IMG/VR virus record: IMGVR_UViG_3300010340_000989 | Location: 100,997-164,996 of that record | Source: a virus | Lineage: Duplodnaviria; Caudoviricetes | Length of the DNA: 64,000 bases | Strand: one strand, 5' to 3' | Shown: in pieces, positions 56,551 through 61,686 of the stretch | Layout: each line of letters opens with the position of its first letter | How positions within the stretch are numbered: the first letter of the stretch is position 1 | Translations under genes and position numbers: made by a program | The notes under the pieces: generated by a model | The model's input: only the letters and a program-made list of their open reading frames with translations | What the model was told of the DNA's origin: nothing | Databases searched by the model: none

Positions 56551-56832
56551 CTAATGATTTAATATATTCTTTAATTTCTTTTGTCTTATTTCCTTTAATG
56601 TTAATTTATCTGTATCTTCCCATAAAACAGTAGTACCAAAATCAATTATAAGTCTTCTTTGTTTTTTAAAACAACATTGGCAAATCCTTGAAGGAAATGA
56701 ACCCTGATATTGTCTTTCTAGTAAATTAGATATAGTATTATATACATAATATTTATCAACCTCATCCTTCCAAGAAGAATATTCCCAGTCATGATATCCA
56801 AAAAAACATTTTATTTTATTTTTATAACTCAC
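56551..56832 (-). CDS. Zinc-binding hypothetical protein (DUF1660-like) with C-terminal tag
   Basis: KCFFGYHDW...RICQCC; ends KEIRQKKLKNILNH. Confidence 0.7.
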   Translation of the reverse strand: MSYKNKIKCFFGYHDWEYSSWKDEVDKYYVYNTISNLLERQYQGSFPSRICQCCFKKQRRLIIDFGTTVLWEDTDKLTLKEIRQKKLKNILNH

Positions 56833-57820
56833 TGATTAAATTTAATGATTTTTTATATCTTTCATTCCAATCACCACCAATTTCTACGAAATTACACCCA
56901 TAGTTTATAAGATATGATTTAATAACTTCATAATGATTCCATCTCTCCTCTAAGAATTTTCTTGTACCATCTTGAACACCTTCACAATCTGGTTTTAATA
57001 AGATGTAAAGATCATATTTAGGTTTGGTTTTAAGAACATTTAAGAAGTATGGTTCAACTTTTTGGTATTCATCAGGACAATACATCTTTGAAAAAAGATA
57101 TGTTGTTATATCTTCTGTATCACATATTAGATATTTTTTAGAAAATTTTATCATCCAATCTTCTATTTCTTGACGACCTTTTGAGATAGGAATAAAATCA
57201 TCAATAGTTATTGAATTATTAATCTCATATATCAATCTACCATATTCAGTAACAAAATTAGTTCCTAAATTATTAGATACATTTTTAGTTAATGTAGATT
57301 TACCAACTGACTCAGGCCCCATGATTGCAATCCTTTTTACAAAAAATGGCTTCATAGAATCTGGTATAAAATTCCAATTTTTAAATGGATCATTTCTAAC
57401 CATAGTTCCTGAAATAGGTACAATTTTTCTTTCTTTATCAACTAATACATGTTCAACACCAAGATATCGAGCAAAATCATCCCCATAGTTTTCAGATGTA
57501 AATACAGCATCTAAACTATCGATTTGTGAATAAACAAGTGGTATCCAATATGAATAAAATTCATCCAAAGTTTCACAATCATAATCATAAGCTGGTAGAC
57601 CTTCATCCGAAACACAATAGATTTTAATGTTAGGGACTTTATCATAACACGATTTAAGTGCATCAAATCTAACTTCACCAGGAATAGATTGTGATGAATT
57701 ATGTGTTATAATTACATGTACCATCTCAGATTGAGATAAAGCGGTATTAATTAGATATAAATGTCCAAGATGTAATCCATAGAATTTACCTAAAACTAAT
57801 ACATTTTTATATTTTTTCAT
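56822..57820 (-). CDS. nadR: Bifunctional NMN adenylyltransferase / ribosylnicotinamide kinase (NadR, no HTH)
   Basis: GKFYGLHLGH, VFTSENYG, PISGT.VR, GPESVGKST, EYGR, CDTE, QDGTR. Confidence 0.9.
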   Translation of the reverse strand: MKKYKNVLVLGKFYGLHLGHLYLINTALSQSEMVHVIITHNSSQSIPGEVRFDALKSCYDKVPNIKIYCVSDEGLPAYDYDCETLDEFYSYWIPLVYSQIDSLDAVFTSENYGDDFARYLGVEHVLVDKERKIVPISGTMVRNDPFKNWNFIPDSMKPFFVKRIAIMGPESVGKSTLTKNVSNNLGTNFVTEYGRLIYEINNSITIDDFIPISKGRQEIEDWMIKFSKKYLICDTEDITTYLFSKMYCPDEYQKVEPYFLNVLKTKPKYDLYILLKPDCEGVQDGTRKFLEERWNHYEVIKSYLINYGCNFVEIGGDWNERYKKSLNLISEL

Positions 57821-58652
57821 CTTCTATTAATTTATCAATTTCTTTAAAATTATTATCCATTATTAAATAAAAATCATATATTTTTGAGGCAGTTTCTTTT
57901 TTTATGATATTTATTTCTTTGTTCTTTTCCCAATAGTACCAAGATTTTATCTCAAATATTATATTTGTATTTTTTATTTTGAAATCAACAAAATAAATAT
58001 GTTCTTTACCATTCATATCAAAATAAGGAATTGTTGGTCCCTTTTCAATAATATCAAACTTACCTTTGTATTCTAAATATTCTATAAACTTTAATTCATA
58101 TTTACTTTGATAATTCAATCCTTTATATTCTTTTGTATGAATTTTTGCCCATCCACTACCTGGGCTTCTACGACCTTCTTTGAAAGCGAGAATTGCAGAT
58201 TTACTCATTTTAGTTTTAACATCTTCACTTCTTTTACTTCCAGTATTTACTTTATGTGCTTTTTTCCAAGGTTTTGCCTCTCTTATCTTTATTTTACTAC
58301 TTTCCCAAGTAAACGGATTGCCATTTAGTTCCATATATTTCCTTGTAGCCTCTTTTGAATTTTCTGAACAAGGTTTACCAAAGTGAATATTTCTATTTCC
58401 TTTATTTACACATTTTTTACAATAATGAACATTATTATTAATATCTAAATCTCTTATACGTCTTTTATGAATTATACTACAATCATCACATATTAAATTT
58501 ATAGATATAGTTCTAAATGTTGATCCTTTTAAAAATGTCCAATGTACTTCAATCTCATTTCCTTCAATTTGTTTACCTATTTTTCTCTCCCACTTTGTTT
58601 TACTTTTATCAGATATTTTAATTTTGACAAATTCACCTTCTTTTATATACAT
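57807..58652 (-). mobile_element. Free-standing TnsA-like PD-(D/E)xK endonuclease with NUMOD3-like motifs
   Basis: YQSKYELKF, IPY, YFVDF...EIKS, K; late motif 58672-58680. Confidence 0.72.
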
Positions 58653-58697
58653 TTTATAATTTATTTTTATGTATATATTACAATTATTCCCTCTACT

Positions 58698-58919: not shown

Positions 58920-59155
58920 TGTAATGTTTTATTAATATATTCCAATTTTTCAATAGGACATTCAATATGATTAAGAGATTTTATTAGTTCTCCTAACTCA
59001 TTTGAAGATTCTTTTATAATATCCTTTAAATATCTTGATTCCTTCACTGATTTAGATTTTAAAAATTTCTTCACTGTGCCATTAACTATAGATCTCTTAA
59101 CAAATAACTTAATTTGTTGTTCATCTAATCCATTTATTTTTTTTTTAAATCCCAT
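58916..59155 (-). CDS. Hypothetical basic protein
   Basis: 79-aa ORF, ATGA-coupled. Confidence 0.65.
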   Translation of the reverse strand: MGFKKKINGLDEQQIKLFVKRSIVNGTVKKFLKSKSVKESRYLKDIIKESSNELGELIKSLNHIECPIEKLEYINKTLQ

Positions 59156-59158
59156 ATA

Positions 59159-59677
59159 TTATTTTTTAATTTTATTCCAATTTATTAATCCTTGTATAGA
59201 TAATATCAAAAACACTAAATATATAAATGATGATAAATATAGTTGATTTTGAATAAAAAGTATTATGTATAAAATGTCTGCCACTATCCAAAAATACCAA
59301 GCCTCTATCTTTTTAAACAATAATAGAAACATCCCAAAAATACTAAGTGTTGTAGTTATTGTGTCTAAAATAGGATGAGTACTTTCAATGGTTAAATATG
59401 AAACTATAAGTAAAGTGGGTGCTAAATAAGATAATATCTCAAAGAATTCTGTTTTTTTAAGAGATTTTATTTCGTTATTCTTATTCCAATTTATCCAAGC
59501 ATAAATAGATTGAGCTAAAAATAATCCTTGTAACCAAAAATTTGCAAATTCACTTTTTGTGTAAAATAAATATGCGAACGCCAAAATACCAATAATACCC
59601 GTTGGCCAACACCAAATTTTATTTTTTGATGTTAACCAAACTGATATAAGACTAAATAATACTGCTATTATCTCCAT
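59159..59677 (-). CDS. pnuC: PnuC-family vitamin (nicotinamide riboside) transporter
   Basis: WCWPTGI, YAWINW, LDT, KKIEAWYFWIVAD, GLINW; multi-TM. Confidence 0.88.
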   Translation of the reverse strand: MEIIAVLFSLISVWLTSKNKIWCWPTGIIGILAFAYLFYTKSEFANFWLQGLFLAQSIYAWINWNKNNEIKSLKKTEFFEILSYLAPTLLIVSYLTIESTHPILDTITTTLSIFGMFLLLFKKIEAWYFWIVADILYIILFIQNQLYLSSFIYLVFLILSIQGLINWNKIKK

Positions 59678-61686
59678 TAAATTGACATATTAAATGTTAG
59701 AAACAAATTTCTAAGAGCCCCAACATAATAAGCTGGTAAATTTCCAGAAACACCACCAGGTAAATAATATTTGTGATTCATAAAATTATTAACATTCAAA
59801 TATAAAGATGTACATTTACCTTTAAATCCAGCATTAAAGTTTAAAATATAATAATTCGGAGTTGTCAATTTCTCATTTTGAGTATTATCTAAATAAGTTT
59901 TTGAAACATATCGACCATTAATACCAAATACAAAAGTTTTATACTTATATTAAATAGTATTATTCATAATAAAATTTGGAGTGTAAGAATGGATTAACCA
60001 TTTATCATCTTTGAAAAATTTATTATAAGAGTAATTCAAATTTGTTATTAGACTAATAGATTTATGAACATAAGTACCATCTACCTCAATTCCTGTTCTA
60101 TAACTTTTATCAACAGGCTGTCTAAGTAAAAGCCCAATGTAATTAACATCACCAGTAGATACTCTTTCATTTTTAAAATACATTCCATAAATATTGGATG
60201 AAAATGATAGGTTCTTTTTGGTAAGTTTAGCACCTAATTCAAAATCATATACTTGTTCCGGTTTAAAATTAATAGTAAAATTATTATCACCAAATCCGGA
60301 AGATAATGAGTCACCTGCTGGATATAGATGATCATATCCTCTAAACATATCACTACGAGTCACTTCACGATTTGTTTTAGAAAGTGATGTCCATAATTCA
60401 TATTTCTCAGAAATATATTTAATACCAATCTTTGGATTAATAAAATTCCAATTATTGGATAAAATAGATTTTGTAGAATCATTTTCTTGATATTGAAAAT
60501 TAACAAATCGATATTGTAAATCACCAAAAAAATTCCACTTATTGTAATTATAATTCAATTTAGTAAATGCAATAAAATCTTGTTTGAATCCAGTATTTGA
60601 ATACCAAAAAATATTTGGTAAAGAATTATCAGATAATTGGTGGAGTCTTTGATAATAATTATAATTTAATCCAGAATTTAAAGTGAATTTATTTTTTGTA
60701 TAAATCATATTAGACATAACACCAGTTTGATACGATTTTAGTCCAAACTTACCAAGTGTAACAGAATCTAAAAATGAAGTATAAGTACCATTTATATTAT
60801 TAGCATAAATAGAAGTATTAAATTTAATATTAGACTTAGAGTAATTAATCCATGTGACTGCAATAAAATTTTGATTAAATTTATCAACTTCATCTGGGGA
60901 ATTTAGATTCATTCTATAATCTTTATCGATTAAATCTTTCGTAACAGGCATCCATGCCATTTGATTTTTAGATTTTCCACTAAAACCATATATTTTTATC
61001 GTGTTTTTATTTCCAAAATAACCAACTTGACCAAAAAATGTAGAACCATTTGTTCCACTATTTTTTCGATACCCTGAAGAGTTTAATTGTGTATAACTAA
61101 TTGAACTAGCAAATTTTGATTTTCCAAAATATCCAGTATTATACTTAACTGAAACTTTATCAGACTTATAAGATCCAGTACCCGCAGAGAATTTTAAATC
61201 ACTTTTAATGGGTGCTTCCGTTTCAAAATTAACCGATCCTCCAATAGAAGTTGTTCCATATTTAGATGTACCGACCCCTCTCTGTACTTGTATATCAGAC
61301 ATATTATTCATAAAGTCTGGCATATTGCTAAAATAAATACCTTGATCTTCCATTTCATTTAATGGAATGCCATTTAGAGTAAAATTAATTCTTGTTTGAT
61401 CAATGCCTCGTATCCTCATATAGGAATATCCATAAGGCAAACCACCATCAGATTGAGTAAAAACACTTGGAACATATCGATTCAAAGTGAAAAATGGATC
61501 ATTCCCTTGATAAGTATTTTTGATTGAATCTAAATTAATTGAACTAATTGTAACGGGTTCATATGATTCTGTTTTAATTCCTACTACTTGTAACTCACTC
61601 ATGGTGAATGTTTTTGTAGTGTCGATTTGTGCAAACATTGTCAGTGAAATAAACAATGTGATAATAAGTGTAACTATTTTATTCAT
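59677..61686 (-). pseudogene. TonB-dependent receptor (Bacteroidetes PnuC-linked family) interrupted by one in-frame TAA at 59950-59952
   Basis: Signal peptide; plug GYSYMRIRG.DQTRIN.TLNGIPLN, IQVQRGVGTS; frame continues ...MNNTI*YKYKTF...YLDN...LNVNN...RNLFLTFNMSI. Confidence 0.8.

Follow-up and report, generated by a model that had tools for sequence, protein, structure and literature searches.

NARP3 of Escherichia phage TrudiRoth combines the PnuC-like protein Bas30_87, which binds nicotinamide riboside (NR) and for which three NR-binding residues have been reported, with the NadR-like protein Bas30_86, which has no helix-turn-helix (HTH) domain and converts NR to nicotinamide adenine dinucleotide (NAD+) (Yan et al., Sci Adv 2026, PMC13464706; PDB 9X6F/9X6H). 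This pair restores NAD+ and rescues phages from Sir2-HerA and DSR1 (PMC13464706), and phage PnuC-NadR has been published not only as NARP3, but also in the form of PHROG families and in jumbo-phage surveys (PMC7824862). The same two families, with the same predicted chemistry of NR uptake followed by conversion to nicotinamide mononucleotide (NMN) and then NAD+, make up PnuC-NadR salvage in bacteria (Haemophilus influenzae and Salmonella NadR, 1LW7; N. mucosa PnuC). A third point of comparison is provided by the thiamine loci of Bacteroidales, in which a thiamine pyrophosphate (TPP) riboswitch is found with a TonB receptor, the channel PnuT and thiamine pyrophosphokinase. Here we describe a locus of a huge tailed phage (Caudoviricetes), probably of Bacteroidota, that encodes a TonB-dependent transporter, PnuC and NadR. 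It is located in the window, by which we mean the whole 64,000-nucleotide stretch of DNA analysed, comprising the last 64 kb of the 164,996-bp IMG/VR virus record IMGVR_UViG_3300010340_000989, a fragment that represents half a genome at most according to its CheckV rating.

Open reading frame (ORF) calls and family matches indicate that all three genes are real and lie on one strand of the window (GC content ~26%), namely the minus strand, which holds every ORF from 63958 down to 55314. The TonB-dependent transporter gene has a 5' part of 578 codons at 61686-59950 (Plug PF07715, 3.7e-12; TonB-dependent beta-barrel PF00593, 3.6e-11) and a 3' remainder of 90 codons in the same frame at 59677-59949, which aligns to the C-termini of intact relatives. 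It is followed by pnuC (172 amino acids (aa), 59159-59677; PF04973, 3e-42; TIGR01528, 75.9 bits against a cut-off of 42.45; phrog_1880) and further downstream by nadR (332 aa, 56822-57820; phrog_3462, 5.5e-74; TIGR01526, 2.6e-65), which encodes a two-domain protein without an HTH. An initial annotation of this DNA had recognized the co-directional trio, which stands, but had NadR following PnuC, and nadR does not come directly after pnuC. The arrangement of the trio is far beyond chance, since the same three genes recur together in dozens of phage and bacterial loci. We estimate a probability of roughly 0.65 that the phage module is copied from a bacterial operon for scavenging the riboside of vitamin B3, in which an inner pair resembling NARP3 is supplemented by an outer-membrane step.

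The module matches a bacterial operon

With a pattern scan covering one genome for each prokaryotic species, 544 relatives of the receptor were identified, and neighbouring genes were counted on the best 80 of these loci. Using tblastn, PnuC was found adjacent to the receptor in 60 of the 80 and NadR in 51; the corresponding phmmer counts were 66 and 69, with six phage and four extra loci also counted. Hosts of the operon include Chitinophaga, Flavobacterium, Mucilaginibacter, Capnocytophaga, Flammeovirga, Saprospiraceae, Bacteroidales and Gemmatimonadota, and many of the loci are situated on megabase chromosomal contigs. The usual layout consists of a receptor of 665-690 aa, a PnuC of 190-210 aa (compared to 172 aa in the window) and a NadR of 326-341 aa with overlapping junctions. 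Variants occur, such as a Fluviicola metagenome-assembled genome (MAG) with the order NAMPT-Macro-x-x-receptor-PnuC-NadR, and Gemmatimonadota loci in which PnuC and a NadR relative are encoded on the other strand, upstream of the receptor, only the kinase part of the NadR relative being matched in several cases. The operon of Bacteroidota and Gemmatimonadota has the same three families, gene order and overlapping junctions as the phage module, and differs in that its receptors are intact and that neither DUF1653, the 79-aa ORF nor the endonuclease described below is present between pnuC and nadR. The module is a copied bacterial operon of the Bacteroidota type and not a phage invention.

PnuC and NadR

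The window PnuC covers the whole Pfam model and comprises the 7-helix core only, aligning to N. mucosa PnuC (4QTN) from the second helix of that structure onward, as the extra N-terminal helix of the latter has no counterpart in the phage protein. The ligand motif of Pnu channels, WxxW(x)3D/N (PMC5749112), is present as WYFWIVAD, together with the Trp-containing ends of both three-helix bundles (INWNK twice). NadR is composed of a cytidylyltransferase-like N-terminus and an AAA_28 kinase. Its NMN adenylyltransferase (NMNAT) domain has the motifs GKFYGLHLGH and ISGTMVR, and its ribosylnicotinamide kinase (RNK) domain has a Walker A motif (GPESVGKST) and a Walker B-like motif (CDTE). The model NF005988 was matched at profile positions 62-404 of 411, leaving out the N-terminal HTH part, and since the match to this E. 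coli-type model starts only at position 62, we conclude that the phage protein is devoid of the HTH repressor domain found in enterobacterial NadR. The ratio of nonsynonymous to synonymous substitution rates (dN/dS) in phage genomes is 0.135 for pnuC and 0.14 for nadR, indicating purifying selection.

Four solved structures of the NadR family are matched by the window protein, namely 8x7f (3.8e-40), 1lw7 (1.9e-34), 9x6f (2.6e-32) and 6gye, and the motifs GKFYGLHLGH, ISGTMVR and GPESVGKST are aligned in the first three. The match to 9x6f, which we take to be Bas30_86 of NARP3, extends over residues 5-287 with GKF...GH, ISxTMxRN and Walker A aligned. Both NARP3 and the window thus have a phage PnuC-family channel and a NadR that has kept the NMNAT and RNK domains without the HTH. 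NARP3, however, is a cassette of two genes in Enterobacteriaceae phages and lacks an outer-membrane component, whereas the window module has a TonB-dependent transporter upstream and its PnuC-NadR pair is Bacteroidota-type, separated by three genes and distant in sequence from the NARP3 genes.

NAD precursors or thiamine

The Bacteroidales thiamine loci resemble the module in having a receptor of a related subfamily, a Pnu channel and a trapping kinase, and the initial annotation had linked this receptor family to thiamine uptake. It is conceivable on these grounds that the transporters are of the PnuT type and carry thiamine or another vitamin in place of an NAD precursor, but we regard this as very improbable. 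A relationship between TPP-linked Bacteroidales receptors and the phage receptor is indeed detectable (28-29% identity, E 1e-55 to 1e-57), and the window PnuC has the motif Asp of the thiamine channel PnuT where N. mucosa PnuC has Asn. The same Asp is present in 34 of 40 bacterial NadR-linked PnuCs, and Asp versus Asn in WxxW(x)3D/N was rejected as a marker of specificity on that account. Against a thiamine function, the partner enzyme is a complete NadR with both NMNAT and RNK domains, and no thiamine pyrophosphokinase was found at the locus, where the neighbours are NadR, DUF1653 and the endonuclease. Neither TPP riboswitches, NAD+ riboswitch classes nor any other Rfam family were detected at Rfam gathering thresholds in the window, in three megaphage loci or in the bacterial operon loci.

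Phylogenetic reconstruction of the receptors points in the same direction. A maximum-likelihood tree of 95 receptors with SH-aLRT support was inferred using two TPP-riboswitch-linked Bacteroidales receptors and two receptors linked to other Pnu paralogues as the comparison set. All phage receptors and all PnuC/NadR-linked bacterial receptors are split from the TPP-linked and other receptors by a branch of length 1.14 with 100% SH-aLRT support. A plug signature, PLNE[MP]EDQG.YFSN, is common to the phage copies and nearly all of the NadR-linked copies shown, a few of which deviate at one position (D for E or S for N), and is replaced by ND[AS]ES[HQ]G in the TPP-linked receptors. The thiamine link consequently holds for a sister subfamily, but not for the phage receptor, which falls in the NadR-linked clade, and the classification of the module as NAD type in the initial annotation is upheld. 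The phylogenetic comparison proposed there separates NAD- and thiamine-linked groups for the receptor, but not for the channel, as the PnuC tree has no labelled PnuT clade. In five Bacteroidota genomes in which a PnuT reference was sought, the PnuC paralogues adjoin kinase-only AAA_28 or unrelated genes and not thiamine kinases, and the distinction between PnuC and PnuT was made by gene context and the receptor tree.

A second PnuC paralogue was observed beside a kinase-only AAA_28 protein of 172-185 aa in Mucilaginibacter, Capnocytophaga and Chitinophaga (L110, L112 and L114). This combination, in which the NadR kinase domain occurs without the adenylyltransferase, looks like a separate Pnu uptake-and-trap system. 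A further Mucilaginibacter locus (L111, 6147-10321) comprises a receptor-Pnu operon with an acyl-CoA-dehydrogenase-like third gene, and its receptor is placed outside the NadR-linked clade.

The receptor family and a nonsense allele in the window

The receptor has a putative signal peptide (hydrophobic N-terminus MNKIVTLIITLFISLTMFAQ) followed, ahead of the plug, by a TonB-box-like SELQVVG, which is conserved as L-x-E-V-x-V in an alignment of the receptor family. A search of the receptor sequence against the PDB produced no match. An AlphaFold (AF2) model of P0001, an intact relative with 91% identity, has a plug in a 22-strand barrel (predicted local distance difference test score (pLDDT) 85.7, predicted template modelling score (pTM) 0.84), and a Foldseek search with this model matched PqqU, YncD and FecA at a template modelling (TM) score of ~0.8. 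The family thus shares a 22-strand barrel and N-terminal plug with transporters of small cofactors and iron, namely PqqU (9C4O), YncD (6V81), FecA (1KMO) and BtuB, although sequence identity to the PqqU/YncD/FecA-type transporters is only 13-16%. The LR745206 homologue of the receptor has been labelled SusC with a suggested role in carbohydrate uptake (PMC9723777). This label seems unlikely to be right, since the full-length window receptor is 669 aa, as opposed to ~1000 aa for SusC with its adjacent SusD lipoprotein, and Pfam scans of the neighbouring genes returned no match to the SusD family.

Translation of the frame 61686-59677 gives 578 residues up to a TAA at 59950-59952, and then another 90 residues to a terminal TAA (59677-59679) that shares bases with the pnuC ATG (TAATG) and would be reached only by reading through the internal stop. 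The overlap of receptor stop and pnuC start reported in the initial annotation is therefore a property of the ancestral gene and of intact relatives such as L097, but not of the window ORF as it stands, which ends earlier. A 63-aa ORF with a TTG start (59677-59868), listed as part of the 3' remainder, was considered as a separate gene and rejected, its translation and alignment to relatives identifying it as the in-frame receptor tail. The closest receptor relatives are 85-91% identical and uninterrupted, with lengths of 653-670 aa (668-670 in five of the six), and some are located on 611-634 kb contigs. In the protein alignment the column of the stop is Glu in the intact relatives, and the DNA of one of them has GAG at the position of the window TAA, which points to a recent nonsense mutation of a Glu codon to TAA at codon 579.

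The TAA allele and identical surrounding DNA were also found in two European Nucleotide Archive (ENA) assemblies, one made with SPAdes and one with MEGAHIT, which may stem from related samples; a sequencing or assembly error is unlikely given identical DNA from two different assemblers. An alternative genetic code or readthrough was likewise rejected, as TAA ends more of the long ORFs than any other stop codon (149 of 223), decoding it as an amino acid yields only spurious overlapping ORFs, and no tRNA genes, hence no suppressor tRNA, were found in the 165 kb. Mapped onto the P0001 model, the TAA falls in the strand at residues 573-583, so that ~18 barrel strands would be kept and the final 4-5 would be missing. 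Compared with L097, the receptor gene has a dN/dS of 0.09 over its whole length, with values of 0.095 for the part ahead of the stop and 0.080 for the part behind it, indicating that the gene was under selection in phage genomes until very recently and that its loss is recent. As judged from assembled sequences, the receptor of the window phage is most likely inactive, a fresh pseudogene in the phage population. The import route across both membranes that the initial annotation had envisaged is, given the nonsense codon, probably not intact in the window genome.

Distribution in phages and evolutionary history

GenBank phage relatives were identified by blastn only among metagenomic megaphages, namely LR745206, LR756502 and LR756501/3 (635-735 kb), each of which shares with the window the gene order receptor, PnuC, NadR. 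In LR745206 and LR756502 pnuC and nadR overlap, unlike in the window. Closer relatives were found among metagenome contigs, with the order receptor, PnuC, 79-aa ORF, DUF1653 and NadR and without the endonuclease. In IMG/VR, 35 viral contigs (13-483 kb, GC 25-39%) encode the receptor, with NadR beside it in 32 and a detectable PnuC in 23. The receptor family is present in 24 of 50,697 GenBank phage records, all of them megaphages (four Mahaphage-sized records and 15 Lak phages) or gut fragments, and PnuC in 475. Phage-encoded TonB receptors, which the initial annotation called unusual, are rare by this count, but have already been reported in megaphages (PMC9723777; bioRxiv 10.64898/2026.10.24.761521).

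In the receptor tree, the phage copies are found at three or more separate positions: a clade of nine that includes the window, LR745206 together with a short MAG contig, and LR756501 together with a Bacteroidales contig. Six of the seven phage copies in the NadR tree form one clade; LR756501 pairs with the Bacteroidales locus L029 in this tree as in the receptor tree, suggesting that the block moved as a unit. In all three trees, those of the receptor, PnuC and NadR, the phage copies nest among bacterial operon copies. These topologies fit transfer of the whole block on more than one occasion, which would have been followed by vertical descent in phages; the trees are quick reconstructions with some long branches, and their branching details are provisional. 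Three loci (L015, L028 and L066) labelled Deltaproteobacteria, Hydrocarboniphaga (Pseudomonadota) and Candidatus Staskawiczbacteria were observed in Bacteroidota or phage clades of the receptor tree and are probably mis-binned contigs; L015 (16.5 kb) is the sister of megaphage LR745206.

The megaphage relatives have additional genes of NAD metabolism. LR756501 encodes a NAMPT-type phosphoribosyltransferase (430260-430955) ~2 kb upstream of the receptor, and LR756502 has a NUDIX gene (153058-153462) directly upstream of it, so that several NAD genes are clustered with the trio in these megaphages. Further NAMPT and Nudix genes are present in the complete megaphage relatives, and LigA, an NAD-dependent ligase, is encoded by LR745206 and LR756502. 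As a separate observation, CxxCxxCC, NUDIX and AAA_33 kinase genes lie ~3.5-4 kb upstream of the receptor in L097 (1704-3213) and L012 (785-2294); the matching region would fall past the contig end at 64000 in the window record.

A role for the receptor in remodelling the surface of the infected cell, by superinfection exclusion or receptor masking, with the adjacency to pnuC merely inherited from the bacterial operon, would be in keeping with a 2026 preprint on huge-phage outer-membrane proteins, in which receptor interference is put forward as a general role of phage beta-barrel proteins (bioRxiv 10.64898/2026.10.24.761521). We consider such a role improbable, as many divergent phage lineages have retained the linkage to PnuC and NadR along with the overlap of stop and start codons, the plug and family signature are under strong purifying selection, and loss of the receptor in the window phage has left PnuC and NadR intact.

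Genes between and around the trio

Directly downstream of pnuC is a 79-aa ORF (58916-59155, minus strand) with no Pfam family, which is kept at the same position in the closest phage relatives and has a dN/dS of 0.046 versus L097. It is followed by a gene for a 73-aa DUF1653 protein (58698-58919, minus strand; PF07866, 1.3e-14; dN/dS 0.26), found at the same position between pnuC and nadR in L005, L012, L097 and L127-L129 and without a tblastn match in the 80 bacterial loci. Members of the phage clade retain both genes between pnuC and nadR, neither gene was detected in the 80 loci of the bacterial operon, and the two may be accessory components of the module that are specific to phages.

The third intervening gene encodes an endonuclease-like protein of 281 aa (57807-58652, minus strand), with matches to PHROG endonuclease families (2e-8 and 1e-7) and a weak match to DUF7487. 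It is absent in L097, L005 and L012, where DUF1653 abuts nadR, and its absence from these closer relatives indicates that it was inserted in the window lineage. Homologues with 37-49% identity are located directly upstream of nadR in five divergent IMG/VR contigs (L140, L145, L147, L153 and L154). Since it is missing from the closest relatives and has homologues beside nadR in divergent contigs, the ORF is probably a homing endonuclease targeting this junction. A DUF7487 gene was also noted elsewhere in L097.

The module is flanked by a radical SAM gene with small upstream ORFs (55314-56514, minus strand) and by a 4HBT (hotdog) thioesterase gene (62235-62621, minus strand). Both flanks are kept at the same relative positions in L005, L012 and L097, where an MgtC-like gene is also found downstream. 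A promoter and terminator scan was uninformative, with 76 promoter-like sites compared to 73.8 expected.

Proposed function

In phages with intact copies of the module, the 22-stranded TonB-dependent transporter would bring an NAD precursor, that is NR or possibly NMN or NAD, across the outer membrane, as suggested by gene linkage. For comparison, NR passage through the outer membrane of Haemophilus is not known to involve a TonB-dependent transporter. PnuC, by virtue of its family membership, is predicted to pass NR through the inner membrane by facilitated diffusion, and the HTH-less NadR, with its intact motifs and solved homologues, would phosphorylate NR to NMN, thereby trapping it, and adenylate the product to NAD+. 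The pay-off would be a larger NAD+ supply during infection, with which the phage could outrun NAD-depleting defences or feed NAD-consuming enzymes of its own. In the window phage, only the PnuC-NadR part, interrupted by the inserted endonuclease gene, is expected to work.

Several points weigh against an NAD precursor scavenging module. It is gene linkage that points to an NAD precursor as the substrate of the receptor, and NR is a small molecule (255 Da) with no obvious need for TonB-dependent transport. A complete 22-strand barrel, which we take as the mark of TonB-dependent transporters, is encoded by intact relatives (P0001 and others) and not by the window receptor, of which the plug is encoded. 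The genes pnuC and nadR are 1.3 kb apart with the 79-aa, DUF1653 and endonuclease-like ORFs between them, and the ligand motif of PnuC has the Asp of PnuT, as discussed above. NadR scores below the NCBIfam equivalog cut-offs (220.8 versus 341 and 165.9 versus 201), which fits a divergent orthologue. Finally, no other NAD genes (NAMPT, NUDIX, Macro, LigA) were found in the 165-kb fragment.

The benefit of the larger NAD+ supply may specifically be counter-defence, whereby the module would rebuild NAD+ destroyed by Sir2, TIR or DSR-type defences and the receptor would tap a scarce external precursor. This is a possibility that we put forward tentatively. Import of NR by a phage PnuC and NadR pair, the core of the import-based anti-defence strategy proposed in the initial annotation, has been shown experimentally for NARP3 with the rescue from Sir2-HerA and DSR1 noted above (PMC13464706), NAD synthesis genes of jumbo phages have been read as countering NAD restriction (PMC7824862), and the complete relatives of the window phage stack several NAD salvage genes. 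For the window phage, however, the anti-defence role is an analogy only. The receptor of this phage is broken; moreover, the products of NADases (nicotinamide and ADP-ribose) are not substrates of the route, so an external precursor would be needed, and the same operon in bacteria serves ordinary vitamin salvage.

A plain NAD-supply role fits equally well. The module may provide general metabolic support, as in KVP40-type salvage, by delivering NAD+ for NAD-consuming phage functions in a long megaphage infection independently of host immunity, and we hold this possibility with the same reserve. It is in line with the NAD-dependent ligase genes of LR745206 and LR756502, the NAMPT and Nudix genes elsewhere in those two genomes, and the nutritional nature of the bacterial operon. 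On the other side, the 165-kb fragment yielded no NAD-consuming gene, and metabolic support cannot be told from counter-defence by sequence.

Significance

Nicotinamide mononucleotide transport genes have been reported near 22-strand phage barrel proteins in the 2026 preprint (bioRxiv 10.64898/2026.10.24.761521). Apart from this preprint, the literature searched contained no paper tying a TonB-dependent transporter to NR uptake, and no description of a bacterial receptor-PnuC-NadR operon was found in it. Three elements of the window add to what has been published: its phage lineage, which is related to megaphages LR745206 and LR756502 (635-735 kb), a naturally occurring nonsense mutation in the receptor gene, and the insertion of an endonuclease gene upstream of nadR. 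We see about an even chance that the receptor represents an as yet uncharacterised TonB-dependent transporter family for NAD precursors, a vitamin-B3 counterpart of BtuB, which is widespread in Bacteroidota and Gemmatimonadota and has been repeatedly captured with PnuC-NadR by megaphages for a NARP3-like route that rebuilds NAD+ from a scarce external precursor taken up across both membranes.

The truncated allele constitutes a natural receptor-minus variant that can be compared with intact relatives for the contribution of the receptor. Should the receptor indeed carry an NAD precursor, it would represent the first TonB-dependent transporter family for vitamin B3, and would explain how nicotinamide riboside passes the outer membrane in Bacteroidota and their giant phages. 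In that case the range of NARP3 would reach beyond phages of Enterobacteriaceae to megaphages of a different phylum, with an outer-membrane step added.

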